Origin: an archaeon
GTDB lineage: Archaea; Iainarchaeota; Iainarchaeia; Iainarchaeales; Iainarchaeaceae
Reading direction: 5' to 3'
Length of the DNA: 26,738 bases
Assembly (NCBI GenBank): GCA_035289485.1
Contig: DATDXA010000050.1
Coordinates: 1 to 26,738, forward strand
The notes beneath the pieces are model-generated. The model saw only the letters and a program-made list of their open reading frames with translations. It did no database searches and was not told the DNA's origin. Both the position numbers and the translations under genes were made by a program. This document shows positions 636-15,400 of this stretch, in pieces. Every line of letters starts with the position of its first letter. Position 1 is the stretch's first letter.

Positions 636-1853
636 ATGAAAAAATACGCGCTCCTCATCCTCATTGCAGTGCTGCTAACTGTAGTACAGATGCAGGCCGT
701 ATCCGCCGCGCAAAGCGATGGGTACATCCACACCAACCATTACTATGCGGTTTCCTTTGACGGGGAAGGCGATGCGGTCGTGCGGGCGCAGATAGATGTC
801 GAAAACACTCTTGACCGGGCGATTTTCTCAGTGGACCTGGAAATCCCCGGCCAGGCAGTGATATACAAGGCTGTGCAACAGAGGCAATATGGAGCATATC
901 CGGTTTATGAGTATGACAGGTATATCCTGCCTGAAAAATACCCGCAATATCCCCACCCCATCAATTACACTAAAACACTCACTTCAGATGCCACAATCTT
1001 GCACCTTAATTTGTGGGAACCGATTCAGCGCGGCGAGAGCTCGAGCATAACCCTTTTCTACAAAATCCCCCTTTACGCGAAAAAGGATTCTCTTGGAAAT
1101 TTCCAGTTCGATTTCCGCACAATAATCGACCGCGATGCGATTCTCATTGAGAACATGCGCGTTGCGGTGAATGTGCAGGAAGGATTTGTTCTCAAAGGCG
1201 GAGATGCAAAAGTCGATTACAGGCCGAACACCGGGTTTATGGGAGAAGCCGCCATGTCAAGCGTTGCATCCGCTGATGTTTCTTCCCCGCAATACAGGCA
1301 ATATTATGACGGCATTAGGAATGCTGACGGCCTTGTGAAAACAACATCGGGCGTTGATGCTTTCGAGAGCTTTCATGTGAAGGGAACTTATGGCGAGAAC
1401 GGATTTTTGGTGAACATGCCAGAAACACTCATTTGGCTTGTTATTGGAATACTTGGAATTGCAGGACTAGCGCTAGTTGTGAAAAAAGGCCTCGGAGCCA
1501 TAAAAATAAAGGGAAAAATCGATACCAATGGTTGGGGAAAAATCGGGTTTATTTCATTTGCAAGCGCCGCGGGAGTGATTGCAATCAATGCGGTTACGTT
1601 CTTTATTGCGCAGGAAATTTCCAAGATATCTTACAGATTCGAGCTCGCCATGATGGGTATTGTGCTTTTGGGGATTCTCGCATCCGCAGGGGTGCTGTTT
1701 CTGCCTCCGCTTTATACCGCCTCAAAAGAGGGAGTTGTGAAGGGCGCTTTGATGTTCTTTTTGAGCATAGGAATTCTGATAGCCATTGTAATAGGGCTGC
1801 AGCTGCTCCTTTCCGCCCTTTTCCCGCCGATTTACACCTATGCAAGCATGTAA
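636..1853 (+). CDS. Hypothetical secreted/membrane protein
   Basis: 405 aa. N-terminal signal peptide (MKKYALLILIAVLL...VSA), beta-rich extracellular domain and about four C-terminal hydrophobic helices. Confidence 0.8.
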   Translation: MKKYALLILIAVLLTVVQMQAVSAAQSDGYIHTNHYYAVSFDGEGDAVVRAQIDVENTLDRAIFSVDLEIPGQAVIYKAVQQRQYGAYPVYEYDRYILPEKYPQYPHPINYTKTLTSDATILHLNLWEPIQRGESSSITLFYKIPLYAKKDSLGNFQFDFRTIIDRDAILIENMRVAVNVQEGFVLKGGDAKVDYRPNTGFMGEAAMSSVASADVSSPQYRQYYDGIRNADGLVKTTSGVDAFESFHVKGTYGENGFLVNMPETLIWLVIGILGIAGLALVVKKGLGAIKIKGKIDTNGWGKIGFISFASAAGVIAINAVTFFIAQEISKISYRFELAMMGIVLLGILASAGVLFLPPLYTASKEGVVKGALMFFLSIGILIAIVIGLQLLLSALFPPIYTYASM

Positions 1854-1984
1854 ACACCCCAGAAAGCCAAAAAGATACCTTTAAAAAGGTCGGGAGCATC
1901 AATTTGTATGCTAAGAGAAAAAGGATTCACTTTTGAATATCGGATTCTCAATAAAGCTAAAGATGAAAATAGAGGTGAAAATAG

Positions 1985-2077
1985 ATGATACAGCTACAGT
2001 ACTGTAAGGAATGCCACAATGCGTTCCAGGTGTCCAGCAACATTGCAGATGCCGAGAAACATATCTGCGAAAAGTAG
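1985..2077 (+). CDS. 30-aa zinc-finger-like microprotein (CxxC...HxC)
   Basis: MIQLQYCKECHNAFQVSSNIADAEKHICEK*; SD GAGGTG at 1972-1977. Below the ORF-track cutoff. Confidence 0.6.
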   Translation: MIQLQYCKECHNAFQVSSNIADAEKHICEK

Positions 2078-2246
2078 GCGCAGAATTATGCTTTTTGCCC
2101 GTTAGGGCAAAAATACAAAGGAATTTTCCGGCCACGCACAAAAGAGGGCCGGAATGAATTCTCTTGTAAATTCTGATTTTCCAATAAAGGAAAATAAAAC
2201 TGCGCGCCCCGCAAAACACAACTACACGAGTGCGGGGCTGATGCAG
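2078..2246. other. Densely structured intergenic region (four hairpins; candidate ncRNA or bidirectional terminator)
   Basis: Stems: TTTTTGCCC/GGGCAAAAA (2092-2113); TTCCGGCC/GGCCGGAA (2126-2154) extended by GAATT/AATTC and TACAA/TTGTA; ATTTTCC/GGAAAAT (2176-2195); GCCCCGCA/TGCGGGGC (2206-2238); enclosing CAGAATT/AATTCTG (2081-2175). Confidence 0.5.
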
Positions 2247-2268
2247 GGATTTTTATGAATTTTAAAAG

Positions 2269-2320
2269 CCTCTTTCTTTTTCGTAAACGTTTTTCTTTCT
2301 CGGCACGAGAAAGAAAAAGG
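2269..2320 (-). repeat. Intrastrand-triplex-type repeat, copy A (2 nt after the tRNA 3' end)
   Basis: Minus strand: CCTTTTTCTTTCTCG-TGC-CGAGAAAGAAAAA-CGTTTACG-AAAAAGAAAGAGG. Hairpin plus mirror-repeated third tract; similar to copies at 2395 and 14715. Confidence 0.8.
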
Positions 2321-2322
2321 TT

Positions 2323-2489
2323 TGGGAGCGCCCGGATTTGAACCGGGGTCGCAGAGTCGTTCGACAACATTGCTTTTAGCAAACCAGGGGATTGCACTTT
2401 TCTTTTTCCCCGGGGTTTTTCTTTTCTGCAAGAAAAGAAAAAGGCCGTGCCCGAACCCTGAGTCCTGGACCAGGCTAGACTACGCTCCC
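2323..2489 (-). tRNA. tRNA-Pro(CGG) with a 92-nt intron at canonical position 37/38 (intron 2358-2449)
   Basis: Acceptor stem GGGAGCG/CGCTCCC plus discriminator A; D-arm GTCT-AGCCTGGTCCA-GGAC; anticodon stem CAGGG/CTCTG with loop TT-CGG-G^A; T-arm CCCGG-TTCAAAT-CCGGG. Bulge-helix-bulge: TTCG/CGAA helix, 3-nt bulges GG^C and CG^A, outer helix ACGGC/GTTGT. Mature length 75 nt; CCA not encoded. Confidence 0.95.
2395..2444 (-). repeat. Intrastrand-triplex-type repeat, copy C (inside the tRNA-Pro intron)
   Basis: Minus strand: CCTTTTTCTTTTCT-TGC-AGAAAAGAAAAA-CCCCGGGG-AAAAAGAAAAGTG. Confidence 0.8.
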
Positions 2490-2543
2490 ATCTTCACCTT
2501 CGCGGAAAAAAGCGCGAGAGGTACCACAAGACAAAATTTGCAT

Positions 2544-2557
2544 GAAAAGCTTAAATA
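2544..2557 (+). promoter_or_regulatory. Candidate BRE+TATA promoter upstream of pyrG
   Basis: GAAAAGCTTAAATA; the same 13-mer GAAAAGCTTAAAT recurs at 9887 upstream of the TA operon. Confidence 0.5.
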
Positions 2558-2620
2558 CCCAAACGAACTAACATTTAGTCTGTTTTTAGAAATTAATTTC
2601 AATCATTTGGGGGTTGCAAT

Positions 2621-4330
2621 TTGGACGAAAAGTTCCTTGCGGAGATAAGCGATAAGTCCAGTGGCGAGCGCTTTACCGATGTCCCGCAGGGCTATGTAAA
2701 GGGCAAAACCAAGTATGTAATCATCACCGGCTCAGTTATGAGCGGCATTGGAAAGGGCATTTTCTCATCTTCGCTTGGAAAGACGCTTCAGGACCGCGGG
2801 CTTAAGGTTGCGCCAATAAAGGTCGAAGCCTATTTGAATATTGATTCAGGAACCCTAAGCCCATACAGGCACGGCGAAGTGTTCGTTCTTGATGATGGCA
2901 CTGAAACCGACATGGACCTTGGTTCATACGAGAGAATGCTTGATACAAACCTCACAAAGGACAATTTCACAACGCATGGGCAGATTTACAACCGCATAAT
3001 CGGCATGGAAAGGGCGGGATTCTACCAAGGAAGGGATGTGCAGTACATCCCGCACGTCACGGGCGAAACAAAACTGGTTCTAAGAAACCTTGCAATGAAA
3101 TCAAAGGCCGATATTGTGCTGATTGAAATCGGCGGAACTGTCGGGGACTATGAGAATCTTTTCGCAATGGAGAGCGTGCGCGAGCTTATTTATGAAGAGG
3201 GGGAGCAGAACTGCTGCCTTGTAAACCTCACATACATCCTCGAGCCGCACCACCTTGGGGAATTCAAAAGCAAGGCGGCGCAGCTTGGATTGCGCCACCT
3301 CATGAGCTTGGGGCTGCAGCCGGATGTTGTGGTGTGCAGAAGCGAGAGGGCGATTACAAATTCAGTGAAAGAAAAAATTTCCATGAACGCAAATGTCCCG
3401 CTGGAAAAAGTGTTCAACACATACGATGTTGGAAACATTTACGAGCTGCCGCTCTTCTATAGGGAGCAGGGAGTTGACAGCGCAATCCTTGATGTTTTGG
3501 GCTGGAATGAAAAGTACAAGGCAAATGGCAGCAAAAGCCTCAAGGACTGGACCGCAAAGAATGTTGTGGAATTTGAAAAGGAAATAACGATTGGCATTGC
3601 CGGAAAATATACGGGAACAAGCGACACATACATTAGCATTGTAAAGGCGCTAGAGCACTGCTCCGCGGCGCTCAAAACTAAAGTTAACATAAAGTGGATT
3701 GAGGCAACGGAAATAGAAAATGGCAAGAAGAAAATTGAGGAGGAAATGAAAGGGGTTGAGGGGGTAATAATTCCTGGAGGCTTTGGAACGCGCGGAATTG
3801 AGGGGAAAGTTAAGTGCGCGAACTATGTGCGCGTGAACAATGTGCCATTCCTTGGGATTTGCTATGGGTTTCAGATGGCTGTTGTTGAATTCGCACGCAA
3901 TGTGTGCGGAATAAAAAACGCGAGCACTGAAGAAGTGAAAAAGGACCCCCAGAACAATGTGATTTGCATCCTTCCCGAGCAGGAAGAAGTTAATGGGCTT
4001 GGCGGCACGCTGCGGCTTGGCGGATTTGATCTGAAAGTGAAGAAAGGGACCCTTGCTTACGAACTTTACGGGAAAAAAGAAACCGTGCGCGAGAGATTCA
4101 GGCACCGCTTCAATGTGAATACCAAATTCATAGAAGCGCTTGAAAAGAACGGGCTTGTATTCTCCGGAATGGCGCCTGAGAAGAAAATAATGCAAATACT
4201 TGAGCTCCCGAATCACCCTTATTTTATCGGCACGCAATACCACGCCGAATTCACTTCAAGGCCGCTAAAGCCCAATCCATTGTACTTTGGGCTTGTGAAG
4301 GCCGCGGTAAAGAAGAAGTTCGGGAAATAA
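2621..4330 (+). CDS. pyrG: CTP synthase
   Basis: KYVIITGSVMSGIGKG, HGEVFVLDDGTETDMDLGSYER, EIGGTVGD; glutaminase motifs PGGFG, GICYG (catalytic Cys) and QYHAE. TTG start preceded by GGGGT. Confidence 0.97.
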   Translation: MDEKFLAEISDKSSGERFTDVPQGYVKGKTKYVIITGSVMSGIGKGIFSSSLGKTLQDRGLKVAPIKVEAYLNIDSGTLSPYRHGEVFVLDDGTETDMDLGSYERMLDTNLTKDNFTTHGQIYNRIIGMERAGFYQGRDVQYIPHVTGETKLVLRNLAMKSKADIVLIEIGGTVGDYENLFAMESVRELIYEEGEQNCCLVNLTYILEPHHLGEFKSKAAQLGLRHLMSLGLQPDVVVCRSERAITNSVKEKISMNANVPLEKVFNTYDVGNIYELPLFYREQGVDSAILDVLGWNEKYKANGSKSLKDWTAKNVVEFEKEITIGIAGKYTGTSDTYISIVKALEHCSAALKTKVNIKWIEATEIENGKKKIEEEMKGVEGVIIPGGFGTRGIEGKVKCANYVRVNNVPFLGICYGFQMAVVEFARNVCGIKNASTEEVKKDPQNNVICILPEQEEVNGLGGTLRLGGFDLKVKKGTLAYELYGKKETVRERFRHRFNVNTKFIEALEKNGLVFSGMAPEKKIMQILELPNHPYFIGTQYHAEFTSRPLKPNPLYFGLVKAAVKKKFGK

Positions 4331-4360
4331 AGCAGAATTTACTAATTTTAGAATAAGAAA

Positions 4361-5221
4361 TTATTTTATTTTCCACTTGCCCTTGCTTTCGGCTAGCGCC
4401 CCTGCCATTTCCTCATTTTCCTTTGAAACCGGCAGGTTGTACTCGTCCTTTCCGCCATAGAGGCTTGCGGGAGAACTTGAAATCCGGGATTTTATCAGTA
4501 GCACTACGCCAACAGCGAGAGCAATTACAACAAGAATCACAATCGCAAAACCAAGCGGCGCAATTATTCCCGAAACCAAATCAACAAGCCCTGAAAACGG
4601 GGAATTCTTTTTCTCTTCCTGCGCCAAGAGCGCGGCGTTCATCTTGGTTTGCTTTGATTCGATGACATCAAGGCGGCCTTCCAACTCAGCGGAGGTTTGT
4701 TTTATTGCGCGGTTAGAATCTAGTGCAGTGCGGTTTATGCGCGTTCCCAATTCATTGATATCGGAGTCATGCGCCGCGGTTTTTTCATCAAGCGCGCCAA
4801 TGCTAGAATCGAGCGCGTTCTTGTCTGATTCGCCAAGCGGCGCGAACGCAATCACGGTTGCGGAATCGTTGCCCGCATCGGATGAGGCTGAAATTGTGTG
4901 AGAGCCTTTCAGTAGCCCGAAGTGCGAAACATAAAGCACCAAGCCGCTCGTGGTTGCGGGGTCCTCATCATAAACGAATGATTTGATGACAAACTGCCCA
5001 CTGTACGGGTCCGGAGTTATTGTGCCATTTGAGTAAACATTGAGAACTTCGGAGCCGTTGATTTTTACCGAAGTTTTTGTCCAGGAATCTGTGGGTTCTA
5101 GCATCACGCTAAAGCCCCATGAGGTGTTTTCTGGAACCGAAGCCGGGGCGCCTATTGTAACCGCAGAAGCGCCAGAAGCCAGAAGGAGCAAAAACGCCGC
5201 AAAAACGAGTGCATTTCTCAT
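4361..5221 (-). CDS. Hypothetical surface protein (signal peptide, beta domain, coiled coil, single TM)
   Basis: 286 aa. Signal peptide MRNALVFAAFLLLLASGASA; heptad-like middle; hydrophobic anchor IIAPLGFAIVILVVIALAVGVVLLI. Confidence 0.8.
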   Translation of the reverse strand: MRNALVFAAFLLLLASGASAVTIGAPASVPENTSWGFSVMLEPTDSWTKTSVKINGSEVLNVYSNGTITPDPYSGQFVIKSFVYDEDPATTSGLVLYVSHFGLLKGSHTISASSDAGNDSATVIAFAPLGESDKNALDSSIGALDEKTAAHDSDINELGTRINRTALDSNRAIKQTSAELEGRLDVIESKQTKMNAALLAQEEKKNSPFSGLVDLVSGIIAPLGFAIVILVVIALAVGVVLLIKSRISSSPASLYGGKDEYNLPVSKENEEMAGALAESKGKWKIK

Positions 5222-5367
5222 TAGTATGAATAAATTTATTCGGATTAATAAATGTGCCTTCGTTTCCGGTAAAATTGGCCTTTTTATGTGCGTTTAATTT
5301 GGGCATCTTAGTGAAACGCCTTGCATTTCGGCTTTCCTTTAAAACAAGAACACCGCCAATTCTTGCC

Positions 5368-6522
5368 ATGGAACTTGAGCGAGTAAGGCTTAGTGAAAAG
5401 GAAGTTCTGCTTTTGGGCACAGCGCACATTTCAACGAAGAGCGTTGAGGAAGTAAAGGAAGCAATAGAGAAGGAAATGCCAGATGTTGTGGGGGTAGAGC
5501 TCGATTTTAACCGCCTGCGCCAGCTAAAGCTCGGAAACCGCTGGCAGGAAACTAATATTGGGAAAATAATCTCCAGCGGGCAAACATACCTTTTCCTTTT
5601 CACGCTGATGCTCTCGAATTTCCAGCGCTCTTTGGGGCAGAAGCTTGGAATAAAGCCCGGAATGGAAATGGTTGAGGCCGTGCGCATTGCCGAGGAAAAA
5701 AACATACCGATAATGCTTCTTGACCGCGACATCAATATTACACTAAAGCGCGCGATGCACAAAATGAAGCTCACGGAAAAAATCAAGCTGCTCTATTCAA
5801 TACTTTTAGGATTCTTCTCCGAAAACAAAATTGAGATCACAACAAGCACCATTGAAGGCCTTAAGGAAAAGGATGTGCTAAACAGGTTAATGCAAGAGCT
5901 CGCGCGCGAGATGCCTTCAATTAAAAGCATTCTTGTAGATGAGAGGGATGCATACATCGCGCGCGCGATTGAAAACAGCCCCGGAAAAAAAATACTTGCA
6001 GTTGTGGGGGCAGGGCACATTGAAGGAATCAAGAGGCACTTTGGGGAGAAAATTGATATCGCGGCAATCACAACAGTTCCGAAAGGAACAAATTACATGA
6101 AAATAATCGGCTATGTGATTCCTGCAATATTTATTGTGCTCATAGCGGCGCTGTTCTATTTCAAGGGAGGGGGAGTAACCCTTACTGCAATCGCATACTG
6201 GGCGCTTGCAACTGGAACTCTTGCAGCGCTTGGGGTAATCATTGCACGCGGGCACCCGCTCACTGTGCTTGCATCATTTCTTGCAGCTCCGGTGACAACA
6301 CTTCACCCTCTGCTTGCGGCCGGGTGGGTCGCCGGGTATGTAGAAGCCAAAATGCGAAACCCGAAAGTGAAGGATTTTGAAAACCTAAGCAACCTAAATT
6401 CACTTGGGGATTTTACAAACAATCAGGTGACGCGCATACTTCTTGTGGTGGCGCTTGCAAACGTGGGAGCAACACTTGGAGTGATAATCGGGATTCCGCT
6501 TGTGGCATCGCTTTTTGGGTAA
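5368..6522 (+). CDS. traB: TraB/GumN (pheromone-shutdown PrgY-like) family protein
   Basis: LLGTAHIS, PDVVGVELD, PGMEM, DRDINITLKRA, LVDERDAYIA, AVVGAGH; C-terminal TMs with HPLLAAGWVAG. Start placed at ATG 5368, downstream of TTTAAA at 5338-5343. Confidence 0.92.
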   Translation: MELERVRLSEKEVLLLGTAHISTKSVEEVKEAIEKEMPDVVGVELDFNRLRQLKLGNRWQETNIGKIISSGQTYLFLFTLMLSNFQRSLGQKLGIKPGMEMVEAVRIAEEKNIPIMLLDRDINITLKRAMHKMKLTEKIKLLYSILLGFFSENKIEITTSTIEGLKEKDVLNRLMQELAREMPSIKSILVDERDAYIARAIENSPGKKILAVVGAGHIEGIKRHFGEKIDIAAITTVPKGTNYMKIIGYVIPAIFIVLIAALFYFKGGGVTLTAIAYWALATGTLAALGVIIARGHPLTVLASFLAAPVTTLHPLLAAGWVAGYVEAKMRNPKVKDFENLSNLNSLGDFTNNQVTRILLVVALANVGATLGVIIGIPLVASLFG

Positions 6523-6552
6523 AAATATAAAGATGGAGGCAGTTGCTTATAT

Positions 6553-7146
6553 ATGCCATTGCCAGAAAGGCGGTTCTCTTCTGCCGTAATGAAAAAAATT
6601 CACCCACTTAAATTGGCAAGAGAAATAAAAAGCCCGGCACATGAACTTCGGGTAGACATATATGAAAAAGGGTTTGATTATGCATACCAGCTTCAGGAAC
6701 ATTTTCCTATAGACCCTCAGCATTTGCAGGAAGTCACAACTAGGACAAAAGAAGACAACAAAAACATTAAATTGCAAGATAGGTTTTCAACACATTTTTT
6801 CCTCATCTCTGCATTTGAACATTCCTTGCCAAAGGGTATGGAAAAAAATAAAGCAATCAAACTTGCAAGTTTTTTGCGTAAAAAGGCAAAATCTGAGGAC
6901 ATACAGGATGATATTGCAAATATTGCTTTCACAAAAGAAGAAAAAGAACTTGGCAAAATAGTCGGGGAGAAAAACTTACAGGCAGCATATGGATTGATGA
7001 CTGAGATATTTAAAGAAGTTCAGGAAATGGAATTGACAAGGGTAAGGGTACAGGCGATAATGACTCTGATGATGCACACTACCCTTCGCGGAGTGACAAG
7101 GGCTAGATCTATAATTAGAAAATTGATGACAGAAATTCACTATTAG
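6553..7146 (+). CDS. Hypothetical protein
   Basis: 197-aa ORF filling the gap between genes; basic and helical; A/T-rich TATA-like sequence upstream. No recognised motif. Confidence 0.65.
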   Translation: MPLPERRFSSAVMKKIHPLKLAREIKSPAHELRVDIYEKGFDYAYQLQEHFPIDPQHLQEVTTRTKEDNKNIKLQDRFSTHFFLISAFEHSLPKGMEKNKAIKLASFLRKKAKSEDIQDDIANIAFTKEEKELGKIVGEKNLQAAYGLMTEIFKEVQEMELTRVRVQAIMTLMMHTTLRGVTRARSIIRKLMTEIHY

Positions 7147-7162
7147 TTTATACAACGGTTTT

Positions 7163-7795
7163 TTAGTTCTTCTTCAAATAAGGAAGAACTTTTCCACTTT
7201 TTTCCGCTTCTGCAATCAGTTTCTTTGCATAGAAAATGCGCTGCACCGAGCCTACTGCGGCAATTAGTGCAATTGCCCAGAGTGAAAGTTCGAGTATTTT
7301 CGTTCCGCTGAATGCAATTCCGAAAATCGAGAGCAATATCCCCCCAAGCAACAGAAGCATGCGCTCTGAGTGCTCTCCAATTGCCGGCCAGTCGCGGTTG
7401 TCTGTAATTATCACAAGCGCCGCGCGCGACTTGGCATAGCTTGCAAGCATTGAAAAGCCAAGAGCGCAAATCGCGGCAATAGGGTGCACAAATGCAGCGC
7501 CGATGAAAAGTATTATTTCCACAGCCTTGTCAACCATTGTTTCGAAATAATTTCCAAAAAGCGTTGAGCGGTTCTGCAGGCGGGCAACCGCACCGTCAAA
7601 GAGGTCAATTGAAACCGCAAGCAGCGCAAAGATGAATGCACTGTGAAACTGCTGGAGTGAAATGAAATACGCGGCAGCGATTGCAAGCGGAACTGCAAGG
7701 AAGCTGAAAAGATTAGGGTTTATTTTTGCCGCCGCGAAAGGATATGCCACAATGTTCACAAACGAGCTTATTGCGGGGCGAAGTTTTCCAATCAT
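7163..7795 (-). CDS. CDP-alcohol phosphatidyltransferase (archaeal lipid head-group synthase family)
   Basis: PN..S followed by DLFDGAVAR...STLFGNYFETMVDK signature; SYAKSRA and GEHSER resemble archaetidylinositol-phosphate synthase motifs. Start ATG 7795 (or TTG 7801). Confidence 0.9.
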   Translation of the reverse strand: MIGKLRPAISSFVNIVAYPFAAAKINPNLFSFLAVPLAIAAAYFISLQQFHSAFIFALLAVSIDLFDGAVARLQNRSTLFGNYFETMVDKAVEIILFIGAAFVHPIAAICALGFSMLASYAKSRAALVIITDNRDWPAIGEHSERMLLLLGGILLSIFGIAFSGTKILELSLWAIALIAAVGSVQRIFYAKKLIAEAEKSGKVLPYLKKN

Positions 7796-7874
7796 TGGCA
7801 AAACACCAGTTAACCATTGTTTATAGGGAGTGAATATATTAAAAAGAAAGGGAAACCAATACTAGCGTGCCTAA

Positions 7875-8876
7875 ATGAAAATAGCTTTTTTTGAAACAGA
7901 GAAATGGGAGCAGAAATACCTCTTGGAAAATCTAAAGGGGCACAAGCTCGAATTCAGCACTAAAGTCATTACCGCTGCGCAGGCAAAAAAGGAAAAGGAT
8001 GCGCAGGCGCTCGCGGTTTTCATTTATTCACAGGTTAATTCCGCAGTGCTTGATGCAATGCCAAAATTAAAGCTCATTGCAACGATGTCAACCGGGTACA
8101 ACCACATTGATGTTAAGGAATGCGCGCGGCGCGGAATTACGGTTTGCAATGTGCCAACTTATGGGGAGAACACTGTTGCCGAGCACACATTCGCCCTGCT
8201 GCTTGCGCTCTCGCGCAAAATACACCTCTCATATGAGCGCACACTGAAGGCGGACTTTTCGGCGCATGGCCTTCGCGGGTTTGATTTGAAGGGAAAAACA
8301 ATAGGTGTTGTAGGGTGCGGGCACATTGGCATGCATGTTGTTCGCATGGCAAAAGGATTTGAGATGGATATTCTTGTCTACGAAAGGCACCCGGATGAGA
8401 CGCTTGCTGCGAACATGGGATTTAGGAATGTGAGCGTGGATGAGCTGTATGCCAAGTCCGATATCATAACATTCCATGTGCCTCTGAGCGAAAGCACAAA
8501 GCACATGTTCAATGCCGGTTCGCTCAAAAAAGTGAAGAAAGGAGTTGTGATAATAAACACCGCGCGCGGGGAAATAATTGACACCAAGGCGCTCATAAAA
8601 GGCCTCTCGGACAAGACCATTGCGGGCGCGGGGCTTGACGTTCTTGAGGGAGAGTGTTATATCCGCGAAGAAAAGCAGGTGCTTGACCCGCACTTTCCCA
8701 AGGAGTGCGATTTGCGCACGGTTTTGCAAAACCACGTGCTCCTCAAAATGCCAAATGTTCTCATAACTCCGCACAACGCGTTCAACAGCCAGGAAGCGCT
8801 TGAGAGGATTTTGCACACAACAATCGAGAATGTAAATGCCTTTGCAAAAGGCAATAAAGTTAATACTGTCCAATGA
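7875..8876 (+). CDS. D-isomer-specific 2-hydroxyacid dehydrogenase (D-lactate dehydrogenase-like)
   Basis: STGYNHID, VAEH, GVVGCGHIG Rossmann motif, INTARG, GAGLDVLEGE, ITPHNAF. Confidence 0.93.
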   Translation: MKIAFFETEKWEQKYLLENLKGHKLEFSTKVITAAQAKKEKDAQALAVFIYSQVNSAVLDAMPKLKLIATMSTGYNHIDVKECARRGITVCNVPTYGENTVAEHTFALLLALSRKIHLSYERTLKADFSAHGLRGFDLKGKTIGVVGCGHIGMHVVRMAKGFEMDILVYERHPDETLAANMGFRNVSVDELYAKSDIITFHVPLSESTKHMFNAGSLKKVKKGVVIINTARGEIIDTKALIKGLSDKTIAGAGLDVLEGECYIREEKQVLDPHFPKECDLRTVLQNHVLLKMPNVLITPHNAFNSQEALERILHTTIENVNAFAKGNKVNTVQ

Positions 8877-8894
8877 AATGAGTACTGTGATTTA

Positions 8895-9842
8895 ATGGTT
8901 GTCTGTGTAATCGCGCTTGTTGTTTTTGGAATCCTTAGCATATTCTCCGCAACTCACAGGGCGATTGCACGCGAGGCATTCGACTGTGTTTTCCGCAAAA
9001 TGACGCTTCGCCCGTGCAACACAGGGCTAGATAAGCGCCTCAAGATGCTTGTGTCGATGAAAGTGATGAAGCACAACGAGGGCGCGGGAAAGTTCGTGCA
9101 CACGAACTTCGAGGCGATTTCATTCGTTTTCATGCTGCTAATGATTGGAAGCATTGTATTCAGCGGCATTGGCATTTACAATTTCTGGGCATACGGCAAC
9201 TGCAACGGGCAGAACAGCTCCGAGCTGTGCCTTCTGAACCCTGAAACTTATTCGAACACCAATCCGCTCGCATGGCTTTTCCCTCCATCCCCTTCTGATG
9301 TGTTGCCTGTTTCAAGCGAAGGGCTTCCCATGCGCGGAACAACAGGCGCGCCTGTGCAAATAATCGAGGTCGGGTGCTTCTCATGCCCGTTCACGAAATC
9401 AACCGAGCCGCTTGTGGATGAGGTGATGGCAAAATATGATGGTAAAGTGGCGCTCTATTTCAAATATTTCCCCCTTCCAAAGCACGAGTACTCGCTTGAA
9501 TCATCAGAGGCCGCAGAATGCGCGCGCGACCAGAACAAATTTTGGGAGTACAAGGAACTTCTTTTCACAAGGCAGCTTGAGTGCGCTGCGCAGCCAAATG
9601 CCGGGGAGCTGCATTCATTGCACGCGGAGTTTGCAGAGGAACTCGGGCTTGATACTGAAAAGTTCAGTGTGTGCATGAACACGGGAAAATATGCCCCATA
9701 CATTGAAGCGCAGAAGCAGGAATCAATCACCGCAGGGATTTACGGAACCCCTACATTTTTTATAAATGGAAAAGTGCTTGTGGCGCCGAAAACGATTGAA
9801 GAGTTTTCTGCGGTGATTGATGCGGAGCTCGCAGCACAATAA
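8895..9842 (+). CDS. Membrane-anchored DsbA/thioredoxin-fold protein
   Basis: Cys-containing 2-TM N-terminal region. C-terminal DsbA-like domain: G...APVQIIEVGCFSCPF, YFPLPKH, AAECARDQNKFWEY, GIYGTPTFFING. Confidence 0.88.
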   Translation: MVVCVIALVVFGILSIFSATHRAIAREAFDCVFRKMTLRPCNTGLDKRLKMLVSMKVMKHNEGAGKFVHTNFEAISFVFMLLMIGSIVFSGIGIYNFWAYGNCNGQNSSELCLLNPETYSNTNPLAWLFPPSPSDVLPVSSEGLPMRGTTGAPVQIIEVGCFSCPFTKSTEPLVDEVMAKYDGKVALYFKYFPLPKHEYSLESSEAAECARDQNKFWEYKELLFTRQLECAAQPNAGELHSLHAEFAEELGLDTEKFSVCMNTGKYAPYIEAQKQESITAGIYGTPTFFINGKVLVAPKTIEEFSAVIDAELAAQ

Positions 9843-9886
9843 ATATAATAATTTCGTCAATTGCCTAATAATATGCCGTATTTTCC

Positions 9887-9932
9887 GAAAAGCTTAAATG
9901 AAAATACACTTATTTTACTTATATTACTTATT
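9887..9932 (+). promoter_or_regulatory. TA operon promoter with a triple direct-repeat operator
   Basis: GAAAAGCTTAAATG (BRE/TATA), then ACTTAT at 9908, 9917 and 9926 (9-bp period), then SD GGTGAT. Confidence 0.55.
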
Positions 9933-9944
9933 CCAGGTGATTTC

Positions 9945-10157
9945 ATGGGAAGAAACATGACAATGGCGTTGAAGGACAAAACTTTTGAAATAATGAAAAA
10001 GCATCCAGAAATAAAATGGACTGAAATTGCAAGGCAGGCAATAGAGAAAAAGGCAATGGAAGTCGAAATGGAAAACGATGAATGGAGAAGGTATGCCATG
10101 AAAAGAGCATATGAGGACAAAGACTGGACTGATGCGGATGAACTCATCGATTATTGA
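9945..10157 (+). CDS. Archaeal RHH-type antitoxin
   Basis: MGRNMTMALKDKTFEIMKKHPEIKWTEIARQAI matches the 'N.T......MKKHPEI.WSE.AR.AI' antitoxin pattern; acidic tail; SD GGTGAT; overlaps the downstream toxin gene. Confidence 0.75.
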   Translation: MGRNMTMALKDKTFEIMKKHPEIKWTEIARQAIEKKAMEVEMENDEWRRYAMKRAYEDKDWTDADELIDY

Positions 10158-10488
10158 GCAGGGAGAGCTCATAGTTGCGGACATCCTTTTTGCAGAGCAG
10201 AACGCCGCAAAAAGGAGGCTTGCACTTGTAATCAGCAAAACCGAATACAACGAGCACTCACGAGACATTATAGCCCTTAAGGTGACATCGCAGGACCATT
10301 CGGATTATTTCTCGATTCCGCTCACAAACAGTGACACTGCAAAAAAAACCCTGAAAAAAGAGAGCTTTGTTGTTGCGGATTTCCCCACCACAATTTCAAA
10401 ACAGAATGTGTTTGCGCGGCCTGACATGGTTTCCGGAAAAAAGCTGGCGGAAATAAAGGCAAAGATTAGGGAACTCTATGAACTGTAA
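10138..10488 (+). CDS. PemK/MazF-family toxin
   Basis: EQGELIVADILF...KRRLALVISKTEYN...DIIALKVTS...LKKES fits the PemK pattern (the usual RP is RL here). Start ATG 10138 or 10132. Confidence 0.82.
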   Translation: MNSSIIEQGELIVADILFAEQNAAKRRLALVISKTEYNEHSRDIIALKVTSQDHSDYFSIPLTNSDTAKKTLKKESFVVADFPTTISKQNVFARPDMVSGKKLAEIKAKIRELYEL

Positions 10489-10544
10489 AATTAATGCACT
10501 CCGCCACAGTTAGACTTAAACACCAATTCACACATTGATTTAGC

Positions 10545-11759
10545 ATGATTTCCGAAAAAATACGCGCCGATTTTCCCATGCTGCAAAAGCACCCAAATCT
10601 TATCTACTTTGACAACGCGTCCACTACGCTAAAGCCAGTACCAGTGATTGCGGCAATGAATGAATATTATGAGCAGTTAACTTCCAACACAGGAAGAGGC
10701 TCACATCATATCAGCCAGCAGGCAACGCAGCGCTTTGAGGAATCACGCGAGGATGTGGCGAAATTTGTGGGCGCCAAGGCGCAGGAGCTTGCGTTCACGC
10801 GAAACGCAACCGAGAGCATAAACCTGACCACAGTTTCGCTAGAGAGAATGGGGCACTTCAAAACTGGCGATGAGATCGTGGTTTCATTTATGGAGCACCA
10901 TGCAAACCTTGTTCCGTGGCAGGAACTGTGCAGGCGCACTGGAGCGAAGTTGCAGGTTGTGAAGCTTAATGCGGATTACACTTTAAATATGGAGGATTTG
11001 CGCTCGAAAGTTTCGCGCAAAACTAAAATGGTTTCAATTGCGCACGCGGCAAATACGGTTGGCTCAATTCAGCCTGCAGCAGAGATTGCAAAAATCGCGC
11101 ACGATAACGGAGCGCTGTTTTTGCTCGATGGCGCGCAGAGCGTTCCGCACATGAGCGTGGACGTTAAAAAAATCGGCTGCGACTTTTTGGTTTTCTCCGC
11201 GCACAAAATGCTCGGGCCAACTGGGATAGGGGCGCTTTATGGAAAACGGGAGCTTTTGGAAAAAATGCCGCCCTACAATTACGGCGGCGGGATAATTTCG
11301 CATGTTTCTGCGGAAAAAAGCGAATATGTAAGCGCGCCGCAAAGGTTCGAGGCAGGAACAACCCCAATTGCGGAAGCATTCGGCTTTGCTGCTGCGGCAA
11401 AGTATTTGAAGAAGCTTGGAATGGAAAATGTGCGCGAGCATGATCGCAAGCTAACGGAGCACTGCATTGCAAAACTTGGTGGCATTTCGGGGGTGCAAAT
11501 GTACTGCCCAAAAAACGCCCAAAAGCAGGGCGGGATAGTGCTTTTTGGTTCCCGTTCGCTTGACGCGGTTGACCTTGCTGTGGCGCTTGATGAGGCCGCA
11601 AATATAGCGGTGCGAAGCGGAATGCACTGCGCAGAACCGATTGTGAGGAGCATTAATCCAAAAGGGCTTTGCCGCGCAAGCTTTTATCTGTATAATACAA
11701 TGGCGGAAATTGACACCTTTGCAAGCAAGGTCATGGCCATCACGGTGGCGTTCAAATAA
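10545..11759 (+). CDS. sufS: SufS-type (class II) cysteine desulfurase
   Basis: YFDNASTT, MEHHANLVPW, DGAQSVPH, SAHKMLGPTGIG (PLP lysine), RFEAGT, RSGMHCA (catalytic Cys), RASFYLYN. Confidence 0.95.
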   Translation: MISEKIRADFPMLQKHPNLIYFDNASTTLKPVPVIAAMNEYYEQLTSNTGRGSHHISQQATQRFEESREDVAKFVGAKAQELAFTRNATESINLTTVSLERMGHFKTGDEIVVSFMEHHANLVPWQELCRRTGAKLQVVKLNADYTLNMEDLRSKVSRKTKMVSIAHAANTVGSIQPAAEIAKIAHDNGALFLLDGAQSVPHMSVDVKKIGCDFLVFSAHKMLGPTGIGALYGKRELLEKMPPYNYGGGIISHVSAEKSEYVSAPQRFEAGTTPIAEAFGFAAAAKYLKKLGMENVREHDRKLTEHCIAKLGGISGVQMYCPKNAQKQGGIVLFGSRSLDAVDLAVALDEAANIAVRSGMHCAEPIVRSINPKGLCRASFYLYNTMAEIDTFASKVMAITVAFK

Positions 11760-11913
11760 AACGCACTTTCACATGCGTTAATTTTTCACTTGGCGAACCT
11801 GAAAAAGCGGGGTAGCGTTTTTAAAACAAACCGCAGTCAATTCTATTATAAAGCAACGAAAACAGCCTTTCCAAGGGTGAGCGGAAGGCATCGAAAAAGC
11901 AGGATTGGTATTT

Positions 11914-12210
11914 ATGAGTGCATTCCCCTATGGAACTGTGCAAACAAAAAAAACCATCCCTGCCGCAAATCATTCCGCCAAAGCATCAGTGCGCTCTTTT
12001 TCAATCGGCTTCTCACTTCTTAGCATTTTCCCATATTTGCTTGCAATTGTTTTTGCCCTTGCAGCAGGGGTAAAATTCGGCTTTTTTGGAATCAATAAGG
12101 CGCTTGCACTGCTGCTTGTTTCACTTATAACGATTTATTTTGCTCTCCCGATGATGGCACAAAGGCTTGAAAGCGGCATTTGGGCAACCCGGAAAGCGAG
12201 GAAAAACTAG
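11914..12210 (+). CDS. Small 2-TM membrane protein immediately upstream of the ATP synthase genes
   Basis: About 98 aa with two hydrophobic segments and a basic tail; ends 14 nt before atpH. Confidence 0.55.
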   Translation: MSAFPYGTVQTKKTIPAANHSAKASVRSFSIGFSLLSIFPYLLAIVFALAAGVKFGFFGINKALALLLVSLITIYFALPMMAQRLESGIWATRKARKN

Positions 12211-12224
12211 GAAGGTGTGAACGA

Positions 12225-12551
12225 ATGGAACACAAAGATGATTTTGCAGAAGAACTTGGAGAAATTAGGCAGGCCGAGGCCGAAAAGGAAAAAATACTTG
12301 AAAAGGCGGCGAAGGATTCCGAAAAAATAATCGCGGAGGCGAACGCGCAGGCAAAAAAAATAATCGAGAAGGCTTCGGATGATGCCGAAGCGATAGAGGA
12401 GGAAATCCTCATGAAGGCTCACAAGGAGCTCGAGGCAAAAGAGAGGCAAATATCTGCAAAGGCGCAAAAAGATGCGCAGGAAATTTCCTCAATGAATGTC
12501 CCTGCACCCGCTGTGAAGAAGGCAATCGAAGGAATGCTCGAAATTGAATGA
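12225..12551 (+). CDS. atpH: A/V-type ATP synthase subunit H (peripheral stalk)
   Basis: Coiled-coil E/K/A-rich (LGEIRQAEAEKEKILEKA); first core gene of the operon; SD AGGTG. Confidence 0.8.
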   Translation: MEHKDDFAEELGEIRQAEAEKEKILEKAAKDSEKIIAEANAQAKKIIEKASDDAEAIEEEILMKAHKELEAKERQISAKAQKDAQEISSMNVPAPAVKKAIEGMLEIE

Positions 12552-12564
12552 AAGGTGCAATGAA

Positions 12565-14472
12565 ATGTTTTTCCCGGCAAAGATGTGCAAAGTAAGGGTC
12601 ATAGGCCTCAAGAGCAACATTGGAAAAACAATCGGGGCGCTTGAGCGATATGGCGGCGCGGAGATAAAAAAATTCTCAAATACTGAAATTTCACTTTCAA
12701 AGCCCCTTGAAACCCACGACGAAACAATTGAAATGCTTCTCAAAATGGAGGCACTACTAAATGCGCTTAATGGGAAGGCAACGTATGCGGCAAAAATACC
12801 GGCTGCCAAGGCCGCGGAGTACATAAAATCCAAAGAATTCCGCGAAACTGAAAAGGAAATAATGAAAATAAGCGCAGAACTCGAAAGCAACTCTGCAGAG
12901 CTTGATGTGCAGAAGGATGCGAAGGCGAGGCTTTCGGTTTTTTTGGGGTTTGACATTGATTTTGGCAAACTAAAGCTTAGCTCGGTTAGCTTAATTGCAG
13001 GAACTGTTGCTGCGCAGAAAAGGCCGGCGGTTGAATCCGCGCTTTCCAAAATTTCTGAAGCGAACTTTTCTTTCAGGCCATATGGGGCGAACTCTTTTGC
13101 ATGCATTGTCGCGCTAAAGAAGGGAAATGAAGAGGCAATTGAGGAAATTTCAAGGGCGGGGTTTGAGCGCGTGCAGCTGCCGGAAATTGGCACAAAGCCA
13201 TCATCCGAACTCAGGGCAATTGAAAAGAGGATTGCGGAGCTTGAAAAGAACAAAGCGGCGCTGCAAAAAGAACTTTTGGGAATTTCCGCAAAATCTTATC
13301 AGAAGCTTGCCGCGGCAAAGGAATACCTCGAAATCGAATCCGGAAAATCCGGCGCTGCAACATCTCTTGGGAGCACGCAGCATGTATTTGTCCTTGAAGC
13401 GTATTTGCCTGAAAAGAATTACCGCGAATTTGAGAGGTTTGCACATGAAAACTTCGGGGAAAGAATGGAACTGCGCAAATTCTCAAGCCATGATTTGGAA
13501 AGCGCGCACGAAGAGGCGCCAACTTTACTTGAGCACAACAAGGCCCTTGCGCCATTTGAATTCATCACAAAGTACATGGCTGTGCCGCGCAGCGGAGAAC
13601 TTGACCCCACAATAATATTTCTTGTATTTTTCCCGATTTTTTATGGCATGATGGTCGGGGATTTCGTTTACGGGCTCATTTCATTCCTGCTCGCGCGATT
13701 CATTGTAAAAAAGGTCGGCGCGGAGAGCATACTTAAGCCGGTTGGAATAATCTGGATGTGGGGAGCCATACCGTCAATAATATTCGGGATAATTTATGAT
13801 GAATTCATGGGCATGTCGCACACAGAACTTATACACAGGTTTTTTGGGCTAGAAGAGGTCGTGCTCTATCATGGAATAGAGAGGCTGCATAATGTGCAGT
13901 TCCTGCTCGCGGCGACCATTCTCATAGGAATTATCACAGTATGCACAGGGTTTTTGCTTGGGTTTTTGAACGCGGCAAAGCACGGGAACAAAAAGCACGC
14001 GATTGCAAAATTCGGCTGGTTTGGAACCGTGATATTTGGGACAGTGCTAATCAGCACCGCGATATTCAATTCATTCCCCCAAATAATGATTCCTGCAAGC
14101 GGGCTGCTCTTGCTTGTTTCACTTTCGCTCGTTGTCAAGGGCGAGGGCGCAGTTGGACTAATTGAGCTTCCAAGCATTGTGGGAAACGTGATGTCCTTTT
14201 CCAGAATACTTGCAGTGGGGCTTGTCGGCACCCTGATAGCGCTAATACTAAATGATTTGCTTTTCCCTTCGCTTGACAAGGGGATATTATTAATCATTCT
14301 TATACCAGTTTACATTGTGGGGCATTTATTCAACGCATTCCTTGCAATGTTTGAATCGTTCATACAGGGAGCAAGGCTCAATTTCGTTGAAATGAACTCC
14401 AAGTTTTTCGAGGGGGGAGGAAGGGAATTCGCCCCATTCAGGCTTAGCAGGAAATATATCAAGGATGATTGA
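12565..14472 (+). CDS. atpI: A/V-type ATP synthase subunit I (a)
   Basis: MFFPAKM, PTLL.H, ELDPT...FFPIFYGMMVGD, SFSRILA (essential Arg), RLNFVEM.SKFFEGGG. Confidence 0.95.
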   Translation: MFFPAKMCKVRVIGLKSNIGKTIGALERYGGAEIKKFSNTEISLSKPLETHDETIEMLLKMEALLNALNGKATYAAKIPAAKAAEYIKSKEFRETEKEIMKISAELESNSAELDVQKDAKARLSVFLGFDIDFGKLKLSSVSLIAGTVAAQKRPAVESALSKISEANFSFRPYGANSFACIVALKKGNEEAIEEISRAGFERVQLPEIGTKPSSELRAIEKRIAELEKNKAALQKELLGISAKSYQKLAAAKEYLEIESGKSGAATSLGSTQHVFVLEAYLPEKNYREFERFAHENFGERMELRKFSSHDLESAHEEAPTLLEHNKALAPFEFITKYMAVPRSGELDPTIIFLVFFPIFYGMMVGDFVYGLISFLLARFIVKKVGAESILKPVGIIWMWGAIPSIIFGIIYDEFMGMSHTELIHRFFGLEEVVLYHGIERLHNVQFLLAATILIGIITVCTGFLLGFLNAAKHGNKKHAIAKFGWFGTVIFGTVLISTAIFNSFPQIMIPASGLLLLVSLSLVVKGEGAVGLIELPSIVGNVMSFSRILAVGLVGTLIALILNDLLFPSLDKGILLIILIPVYIVGHLFNAFLAMFESFIQGARLNFVEMNSKFFEGGGREFAPFRLSRKYIKDD

Positions 14473-14487
14473 AAAGGAGGTGCAACA

Positions 14488-14709
14488 ATGGTACTCGAAG
14501 AAGCTGCTGCAAAGGCACTCGGAGCCGCTATCGCAATTTTCGGCGGAGCAATAGGAACCGGGCTCGCGCAATCGGCAATCGGAGCAAGCGCAGTAGGCGT
14601 CATAGCCGAAAAACCCGAGCAGGCATCAAAACTGCTGGTGTGGCTTGTCATACCAGAGTCAATAGTCATATTCGGATTCATTGTAGCGGCAGTGTTGCTG
14701 TTCCTTTGA
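14488..14709 (+). CDS. atpK: A/V-type ATP synthase proteolipid subunit K (c), single hairpin
   Basis: 73 aa: GAIGTGLAQSAIG...AEKPE...IPESIVIFG with ion-binding Glu; strong SD AGGAGGTG. Confidence 0.95.
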   Translation: MVLEEAAAKALGAAIAIFGGAIGTGLAQSAIGASAVGVIAEKPEQASKLLVWLVIPESIVIFGFIVAAVLLFL

Positions 14710-14714
14710 AACAA

Positions 14715-14767
14715 CCTTTTTCTTTTCGTTAACACGAAAATAAAAATGTTGACGAAAAAGAAAAGTG
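14715..14767 (+). repeat. Intrastrand-triplex-type repeat, copy B (5 nt after the atpK stop)
   Basis: CCTTTTTCTTTTCG-TTAACA-CGAAAATAAAAA-TGTTGACG-AAAAAGAAAAGTG; one mismatch (T14741) against the consensus. Confidence 0.78.
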
Positions 14768-14772
14768 TCAGA

Positions 14773-14796
14773 CTTTCGCCAGAAAACTGGCGAAAG
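14773..14796 (+). other. Perfect 10-bp hairpin in the atpK-atpE spacer
   Basis: CTTTCGCCAG-AAAA-CTGGCGAAAG. Confidence 0.7.
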
Positions 14797-14824
14797 GGCA
14801 TGATTATCGCCAGGTGAGCAAAAA

Positions 14825-15400
14825 ATGGGATTGGAAAACGTGAAAAAGGGCCTTGTGCAGCAAGCGCAGGCGGAAGCGAAGAAAATTCTCTCGCAAGCTG
14901 ACAAGCTGGCAGAGCAAACAATCGAGGAAGCCAAGGAAAATGCATCCAAAATAAGGGCGCGGGCAAAGGAGAGGGCTGCGCAGATTGCGGATGCTGAGGC
15001 CAATGAGAAAGGGAGCGCTGCAAAGCTGCGCGCAAAAAAGCAAATTGCTGAAGCGACAAATGCGAAGATGGATGAGGCGCTTGCAAAGGCTTGGGAAGAA
15101 TTTTCCAGCGCGGCTCAGGGAAAAGGATATGAAAAAATGATGGAAATGCTAATTGAGGTAGCGGAAAAAGAGCTCGGCGGCAAGGCAATTGTATATGTAA
15201 ATGAGCGCGATGAAAAAATTGCCAAGAAATTTTCTAAAAATGTTTCACCAAAGGCGGCAAACATTTCAGGCGGAGCCATTGTGTCCACTGCAGATGGAAG
15301 AATAAGCATAGACAACTCGCTTGAGGCGATATTCGCGCAGAAAAAGGACGATGCAAAGAAGGTGCTTTACATGGAAATGTTCAAGGAGAGGGGCGAATAA
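14825..15400 (+). CDS. atpE: A/V-type ATP synthase subunit E
   Basis: MGLENV, N-terminal coiled coil, ISGGAIVSTADGRISIDNSLE; SD AGGTGA. Confidence 0.93.
   Translation: MGLENVKKGLVQQAQAEAKKILSQADKLAEQTIEEAKENASKIRARAKERAAQIADAEANEKGSAAKLRAKKQIAEATNAKMDEALAKAWEEFSSAAQGKGYEKMMEMLIEVAEKELGGKAIVYVNERDEKIAKKFSKNVSPKAANISGGAIVSTADGRISIDNSLEAIFAQKKDDAKKVLYMEMFKERGE

Follow-up and report, generated by a model that had tools for sequence, protein, structure and literature searches.

The 26,738-nucleotide stretch of archaeal DNA analysed here (the window, contig C50 of a 1.156-Mb assembly in 64 contigs, hereafter G000) carries three copies, A, B and C, of a short repeat in which three tracts of one strand covary. 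The copies are members of a large non-coding family of structured repeats in DPANN archaea. The reading that we favour, with confidence somewhat short of even, is that the family is an archaeal, A/T-rich counterpart of the bacterial PIT/BoxC/TMECO repeats, copied at the DNA level and tolerated or co-opted at gene borders. We rank an RNA-processing boundary module second, a transcription terminator or insulator third, and a structure of duplex DNA last.

On one strand the unit comprises three flank bases (p1-p3), the dinucleotide CC, a pyrimidine tract (tract 1), a loop, a purine tract (tract 2), a linker, a second purine tract (tract 3) and a tail. Copy A (2269..2323, minus strand) has its flank at 2323-2321, CC at 2320-2319, tract 1 at 2318-2307, the loop at 2306-2302, tract 2 at 2301-2290, the linker at 2289-2282 and tract 3 at 2281-2270. 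Copy C (2392..2447, minus strand) has its flank at 2447-2445, CC at 2444-2443, tract 1 at 2442-2432, the loop at 2431-2427, tract 2 at 2426-2416, the linker at 2415-2408, tract 3 at 2407-2397 and a tail at 2396-2392 that pairs with the hairpin loop. Copy B (14712..14768, plus strand) has its flank at 14712-14714, CC at 14715-14716, tract 1 at 14717-14727, the loop at 14728-14735, tract 2 at 14736-14746, the linker at 14747-14754, tract 3 at 14755-14765 and its tail at 14766-14768. A strict three-tract pattern matches the window twice (A and C) and has no match in 100 shuffles; it misses copy B because tract 2 of that copy has T at 14741, where G is expected. Computed folding of the hairpins gave z-scores of -2.6 to -4.3.

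A sequence-only reading of the window had placed the copies at 2320-2269 (minus), 2444-2395 (minus) and 14715-14767 (plus), and our own reading of both strands confirms them. In all three, as it had said, tract 2 has its reverse complement in tract 1 and its mirror image in tract 3; the extra base of copy A is indeed present in each of the three tracts. The proposed unit of about 50 bp is too short: the flank pairs with the linker and the tail with the hairpin loop, which extends the unit to about 60 bp. Nor are these free-standing repeats. Copy C lies within an intron of a tRNA-Pro(CGG) gene, copy A directly behind the same tRNA and copy B behind a gene for ATP synthase subunit c.

We examined covariation in 129 parsed elements (123 unique) from G000 and from loci of its relatives chosen via element or tRNA-plus-element matches. 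The elements contain 53 distinct tract-1 strings and, because copies are related and element counts overstate the number of independent events, these 53 variant types are the safer figure. That each comes with matching tracts 2 and 3 upholds the earlier suggestion that structure, and not sequence, is conserved. The three-way test proposed with it was run on this larger alignment: bases other than T (tract 1) or A (tracts 2 and 3) occupy the same positions across all tracts in 105 of the 123 unique elements. T-A-A and C-G-G account for 1516 of the 1604 aligned triads. The stems, rich in T and A, measure 10-16 nt. The 8-nt linker, earlier taken to be constant, is so in A, B and C but not across the family, where 87 of the 129 parsed elements have it.

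Tracts 2 and 3 mirror each other exactly in 68 of the 123 unique elements, compared with a mean of 6 and a maximum of 14 in 1000 shuffles of partners. Copying alone is insufficient to account for this match, because a polymerase cannot produce a mirror copy of a purine tract. We infer that selection on a fold placing tract 3 against the hairpin is the simplest explanation. In such a fold tract 3 would run along tract 2 in the antiparallel sense, each A facing an A-T pair and each G a G-C pair; this arrangement would be a class II purine-motif intrastrand triplex, and the complementary strand could adopt the pyrimidine-motif equivalent. At the level of sequence the elements have the class II motif (the geometry of PIT and TMECO), and tract 2, an 8-nt linker and tract 3 together form a mirror repeat of the H-DNA type. 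No deviation is confined to tract 1; 20 are confined to tract 2, of which 12 are G to T, and 28 to tract 3. The tract-2 change from G to T is recurrent: it is seen at window position 14741, in the G005 ortholog (locus L093) and in 10 further unique elements, and yields a C.T mismatch, with tracts 1 and 3 keeping C and G.

The segments that join and flank the tracts covary as well. The linker is a palindrome: among 58 unique linkers, positions 1:8, 2:7 and 3:6 are Watson-Crick pairs in 44, 29 and 45, and the pairs occur in both polarities (C-G and G-C; T-A and C-G), while shifted controls give 10-26 of 58. The 65 unique flank/linker combinations show the flank bases paired with linker positions 5, 4 and 3 in 61, 63 and 63 cases, with as many as four kinds of pair; 218 of 260 flank:linker pairs are Watson-Crick, against 129 after shuffling (maximum 146). 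When the hairpin loop has at least 5 nt, the bases that follow tract 3 pair with its 3' part, the mean longest complement over 51 elements being 3.94, against 2.96 in shuffled sets (maximum 3.37 in 500) and 2.80 in a reversed-loop control. An intrastrand triplex needs tract 3 to lie antiparallel to tract 2, and the linker palindrome and the tail:loop helix would fasten it in that position at its two ends. Over hairpin, linker and flank pairs, mismatches of the G.T type number 22 and those of the A.C type 7, events that are not independent; the excess points to folding of the strand as written, be it DNA or RNA.

A structural scan combined with a profile search returned 33 full copies in G000, together with three composites in which a second small repeat is nested in tract 2. 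The pattern search that the sequence-only reading had suggested, once run, gave 26 strict matches in this genome and one match for the backwards pattern. Strict matches occur in 20 of the 22 other genomes of the same taxonomic family and in 43 of 101 relatives. Across the phylum 77 of 215 genomes have them, every one a member of a single order; none of the 19 phylum genomes from other orders has a strict match. In other families of the order the linker measures 9-11 nt. Inside one genus the strict-pattern counts are 0, 0, 7, 13 and 47. Searches at the level of BLAST likewise found no members in genomes G010 and G019, the two element-free genomes of the family, one of which is 95% complete. Near-identical copies stand behind tRNA-Trp and within the intron of tRNA-Tyr.

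Rfam (4227 curated models at the gathering score) has no match anywhere in the window, and at 13 further element sites it matches only rRNA, RNase P RNA and tRNA, never the elements themselves. The sequence-only reading had known of no such family in DPANN archaea; in agreement with this, literature searches covering main texts outside subscription journals returned no paper that describes it. Sixty viral-classed contigs in IMG/VR (loci L116-L175) match the strict pattern, about 20 of them with the full hairpin-plus-mirror architecture; these contigs may be archaeal viruses or misfiled DPANN DNA.

The distribution of copies relative to genes follows a strict rule. Of the 33 full copies in G000, nine lie 0-3 nt behind a tRNA in the same orientation and eight lie 1-5 nt before a tRNA, inverted. 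Five are in tRNA introns (one each in Pro-CGG, Leu-CAA and Tyr-GTA, two in Arg-CCG), one is 18 nt behind the 23S rRNA match, one is 27 nt before tRNA-Gln, and the other nine are intergenic or near the ends or starts of open reading frames (ORFs). Orientation was scored in 78 elements from G000 and 20 regions of G021, the regions having been picked for elements and not for tRNAs. Forty-seven of the 78 flank tRNAs or lie within them: 17 follow the 3' end in the same orientation, 13 precede the 5' end in inverted orientation, and introns hold 12 sense and 5 inverted copies. The CC/tract-1 end, that is, the hairpin end, adjoins the tRNA in 30 of 31 flanking copies. An intron set of 33 rows (30 distinct), with approximate boundaries from ARAGORN, gives the same picture, all 26 sense rows starting 3-10 nt from the intron 5' end and all 7 inverted rows 4-15 nt from the intron 3' end. 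At protein genes, where ORF calls were crude, the proposed check of strand bias and distance to gene 3' ends showed seven sense copies beginning 3-12 nt past a stop codon and two antisense; three inverted copies lie 8-18 nt ahead of a start codon. The hairpin end thus faces the neighbouring gene or exon at both gene ends, an arrangement that is symmetric in DNA and produces complementary RNAs.

So close a fit to processing sites raises the possibility, in our view a rather unlikely one, that the element is an RNA-processing boundary module: a hairpin or triple helix of the transcript, immediately adjoining the point where RNase Z, RNase P or the splicing endonuclease cuts, that would keep discarded RNA off the tRNA body or switch the cut-site bases between hidden and free. 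The hairpin end does abut the cut site in 30 of 31 flanking copies and in all intron rows. The linker can pair either with itself or with flank bases p1-p3, among which is the tRNA-Pro discriminator; element sites are conserved across genera, and the wobble bias (22 G.T to 7 A.C) favours the sense strand. Introns with two inverted copies, moreover, can make a long helix beside the bulge-helix-bulge. Against such a role, the element is dispensable, since two genomes of the family (one of them 95% complete) have no copies and their tRNA-Pro still bears an intron, and in two orthologous introns it is broken by nested insertions. Leader copies also yield RNA complementary to that of trailer and intron copies, so that one RNA mechanism cannot serve both.

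A more elaborate version, which we consider doubtful, is a two-state device. The two linker pairings covary and are mutually exclusive. The linker would pair either with the flank bases (the tRNA discriminator or the first intron bases) or with its own other half, docking the third strand; the resulting triple-helix switch would govern the timing or the occurrence of cleavage by RNase Z, RNase P or the splicing endonuclease, and inverted pairs of elements would enlarge archaeal tRNA introns.

Position behind genes is also what would be expected if the T-run of tract 1 stopped outgoing transcription and the two T-runs of the opposite strand stopped incoming transcription, an account as terminator or insulator to which we give little credence. 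Copies A and B both contain a T-run of at least 5, as do 28 of 33 copies at tRNA 3' ends; among sense intron copies, where such a run must be read through, 14 of 24 have one. Seven sense copies, to two antisense, stand 3-12 nt past a stop codon, and where a species has no element behind tRNA-Pro or subunit c, inspection by eye shows T-runs and/or GC hairpins in its place. T5 is nevertheless present within the introns of tRNA-Tyr, a single isoacceptor, in relatives, and in 6 of 6 inverted intron copies, and must therefore be read through. Leader copies 1-5 nt before a tRNA would stop that tRNA's own transcript, and termination gives no reason for tract 3 to mirror tract 2.

The history of individual sites provides further information. 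Comparison of filled and empty orthologous sites, as the sequence-only reading had recommended, found an element in the tRNA-Pro trailer of 4 of 6 congeneric species and behind subunit c in 2 of 12 species (G000 and G005); most other subunit-c sites have a GC hairpin and/or a T-run instead (judged by eye). The intron copy of tRNA-Pro is present in all 6 species examined, broken by nested insertions in two. In G010 the tRNA-Pro(CGG) intron measures 36 nt and lacks the element, and the gene is followed by a T8 run. This presence/absence polymorphism and the burst in copy number (0-47 in one genus) are features of miniature inverted-repeat transposable elements (MITEs). When contigs from four DNA sequencing runs were compared with window positions 1800-15200, the only joints were to paralogous tRNAs or other copies, and no empty allele was seen.

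We also compared the flanks of tRNAs, identified with Rfam and ARAGORN, among four genomes of three genera, excluding Gly-GCC (non-orthologous lineages), Met, Ile-TAT and tRNAs found in one genome or absent from G000. A leader copy at tRNA-Val(TAC) and a trailer copy at tRNA-Lys(TTT) are common to all four. G000 and G005 have 10 and 8 occupied flank sites, of which 6 are shared (1.7 expected); G000 and G012 share 5 (2.4 expected, P 0.048), and sharing between G005 and G012 is not significant. From genome to genome, all three tracts, linker and flank of a shared site vary together, and copies resemble their genome-mates, as in the CTGTAC-type linkers of G009. We read these concerted differences as probable homogenisation or re-insertion. 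A supposed gain of an intron in tRNA-Gly(GCC) between G000 and G005 was rejected, the genes being non-orthologous.

The DNA-level repeat that we favour would bring these observations together as follows. Selection would keep the three-stranded fold of one strand, most likely because the family is copied and homogenised at the DNA level, by gene conversion or by a structure-specific insertion as yet unknown, as for bacterial PIT/TMECO or REP sequences. The element would persist only in DNA that is intergenic or discarded after transcription, namely tRNA introns, leaders and trailers, the 23S trailer and the space behind stop codons. Copies at 3' ends would have replaced ordinary T-run or hairpin signals and may act as such. 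A selfish repeat of this kind fits the turnover, the nesting and the restriction to discarded DNA.

Several points weigh against this explanation. Between G000 and G009, 9 and 11 of 52 flank sites are occupied and 7 are shared where 1.9 are expected (P 7.5e-5); such sharing across genera would fit host function, or a very marked preference for particular sites, no worse than free mobility and perhaps better. Triplexes of the purine motif are weak when A-rich, two 5' copies of G009 retain only the hairpin, and the linker palindrome and the flank:linker helix compete for the same bases, which a simple triplex leaves unexplained and which we cannot reconcile with a single static fold. Terminal inverted repeats beyond the internal hairpin and a regular target duplication, the marks of a MITE-like or transposase-dependent element, were not found. 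Nor did a transposase track the family, IS200/IS605 Y1 being the transposase family examined: G008 and G013, with 33 and 24 pattern matches, have no Y1 hits. As a candidate mobiliser, the IS200/IS605 Y1 transposase was rejected on hits in 9 of 23 genomes without correlation with copy number.

A second small repeat (about 54 nt, two hairpins) is nested in tract 2 at C5:45681(+), C5:39796(-) and C29:53289(-) of G000, and recurs in the tRNA-Pro introns of G001 (L054) and G002 (L050). It always follows GAA and precedes AAA plus the linker, a fixed nesting point that suggests second-order, site-specific insertion. In the leaders of tRNA-Val(TAC) and tRNA-Cys of G009 (L176 and neighbours), linker and tract 3 are replaced by a common, unrelated tail. 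At C52:880-709 (-) of G000 an element is preceded by a 16-nt duplicate of the tRNA-Gln 5' end and followed by a 22-nt spacer and the full tRNA-Gln gene; the 16-nt piece is possibly a target duplication from insertion or recombination.

The orientation rule, being symmetric in DNA at both gene ends, can also be taken as a sign that the double-stranded form matters. Under this account, which we hold to be the least probable of all, H-DNA or a double-triplex cruciform would be extruded under negative supercoiling near highly transcribed genes, where it would absorb supercoiling, pause replication or act as a hot spot of recombination. H-DNA requires a homopurine mirror repeat, which tracts 2 and 3 together provide, and the E. 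coli counterpart has been linked to genomic variability (PMC4666352); the duplicated 16-nt piece of tRNA-Gln adjoins one copy. H-DNA, however, needs neither tract 1 nor a palindromic linker nor tail:loop pairing, yet all of these covary, and the wobble bias of 22 to 7 points to one strand folding alone. As in H-DNA mirror repeats, tracts 2 and 3 with the linker make a perfect or near-perfect mirror; unlike in H-DNA, a covarying third tract of the same strand would permit a triplex of one strand, with no unpaired half left over.

Among known systems, REP sequences and their bacterial interspersed mosaic elements (BIMEs) in enterobacteria are short, structured intergenic repeats, often behind genes and homogenised within a genome, some of them recruited for termination or to stabilise mRNA. 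Each REP is a simple, imperfect palindrome, and RAYT transposases are associated with the family. The archaeal elements resemble them as short structured repeats that are often behind genes, but no Y1 transposase gene tracks the archaeal family. A different likeness is to MALAT1 and MEN-beta, in which a 3'-end triple helix lies upstream of a tRNA-like RNase P substrate. Inverted leader copies, read in the sense of the tRNA, would have the order U-rich tract, turn, U-rich tract, loop, A-rich tract, RNase P site; copies A, B and C are oppositely oriented, and organism and context are unrelated.

The closest match is to the class II triplex repeats PIT/BoxC/TMECO, for which Holder et al. 2015 (PMC4666352) report triplex formation in vitro, variability from strain to strain and no function. 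In the text of that article no consensus is given for flanking genes, the word "tRNA" does not occur and archaea appear only as part of a database. The sequence-only reading had likened the window copies to bacterial intrastrand-triplex repeats, and the geometry agrees with class II as described there for E. coli TMECO/PIT/BoxC. The archaeal and bacterial repeats have in common the order of pyrimidine stem, loop, purine stem, loop and mirror purine stem on one strand, many dispersed copies, a copy number that varies strongly among close relatives, and the lack of a known function. The TMECO consensus has G/C-rich stems of 9 nt, of the CCCTCNCCC type, a first loop of 3-6 nt and a second of 3 nt, and by these features the archaeal elements fall outside the TMECO sequence family: their stems are A/T-rich and 10-16 nt long, and their second loop is palindromic and in 87 of 129 elements has 8 nt. 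Unlike the bacterial repeats as presented there, they also add the flank:linker and tail:loop helices and are strictly placed and oriented at tRNA exon and gene borders. Bacterial intrastrand-triplex repeats have been known without function or positional rule, and it is the DPANN counterpart that follows a strict one.

Spread among introns has a precedent in the transposed tRNA introns of Thermoproteales, where near-identical introns occur in unrelated tRNAs (Fujishima et al. 2010, per review PMC4090602). Near-identical sequences in the introns of unrelated tRNAs imply, in both cases, spread at the DNA level by a mechanism that is unknown. To judge from that account of the Thermoproteales, the archaeal element differs in that the shared unit is only part of the intron and lies within pre-existing canonical introns, and in that it is also found at tRNA ends and behind protein genes, with a triplex signature. 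The family thereby offers a handle on how archaeal tRNA introns grow and exchange sequence, an open question. It also supplies hundreds of natural covariation variants and natural filled and empty sites, and makes a case, at the sequence level, for a three-stranded fold under selection in cells.

The tRNA-Pro(CGG) gene (2323..2489, minus strand), previously unannotated, was read as a cloverleaf directly from the window, with exon 1 at 2489-2450, exon 2 at 2357-2323 and the discriminator A at 2323. ARAGORN with introns allowed reports tRNA-Pro(cgg) c[2322,2490] i(41,92); default ARAGORN and the Rfam gathering search of the window both miss the gene. Its one intron (2358..2449, minus strand; 92 nt) was placed from the sequence, the orthologs and the ARAGORN length. 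It is a canonical archaeal tRNA intron, at position 37/38 and with a bulge-helix-bulge (outer helix CAGGG/CTCTG, central helix TTCG/CGAA of 4 bp, 3-nt bulges GG|C and CG|A). The 3' anticodon-stem strand CTCTG at 2356-2352 is fixed by the five orthologs recovered from the same genus (G001-G005; G006 yielded none), which rule out two separate inserts in favour of the single 92-nt intron. Copy C begins 2 nt inside this intron and copy A at the discriminator base. The subunit c/K gene (14488..14709, plus strand; Pfam PF00137, E 1.2e-13) lies between subunit I upstream and subunit E downstream (matches to PF01496 and PF01991), and copy B begins 3 nt past its stop codon, which ends 2 nt ahead of the flank.

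Introns of 74-142 nt hold elements in tRNA-Tyr(GTA), tRNA-Arg(CCG), tRNA-Leu(CAA) and tRNA-Pro(CGG). None of these four tRNAs was found by the Rfam tRNA search of the genome. The first three were located by ARAGORN with long introns at C24:4765-4963, C63:7885-8102 and C23:8136-8295 of G000, respectively; with introns of up to 120 nt it finds tRNA-Pro and tRNA-Leu, whereas tRNA-Tyr and tRNA-Arg(CCG) require up to 250 nt (the default run covered the window). Standard tRNA finders can thus be expected to miss element-carrying tRNAs (Pro(CGG), Tyr, Leu(CAA), Arg(CCG)) unless long introns are allowed, which is a warning for annotation.

Two ideas about the leader copies were set aside. That the tRNAs are leaderless and the cell has no RNase P was rejected, an RNase P RNA match being present. 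This match (C2:1134-1400 of G000; 81.5 bits, gathering score 84; cut by the end of the fetched locus) is situated some 800 nt past the end of the 23S rRNA and one triplex element. That the opposite strand of tract 2 serves as TATA box for tRNAs with leader copies is unsupported; normal tRNA promoters here are of the TTTTAAA type, and TATA-like boxes occur upstream of leader copies at variable distance. Finally, tRNA-Ile-TAT, Leu-GAG, Lys-TTT and Trp-CCA have a common, conserved module of about 60 nt directly before the tRNA 5' end (G000 C36:~4600-4668, C40:~1880-1943, C43:~10870-10929 and C49:~10435-10495), and related pieces adjoin tRNA-Thr(TGT), tRNA-Ala(TGC) and tRNA-Pro(TGG).

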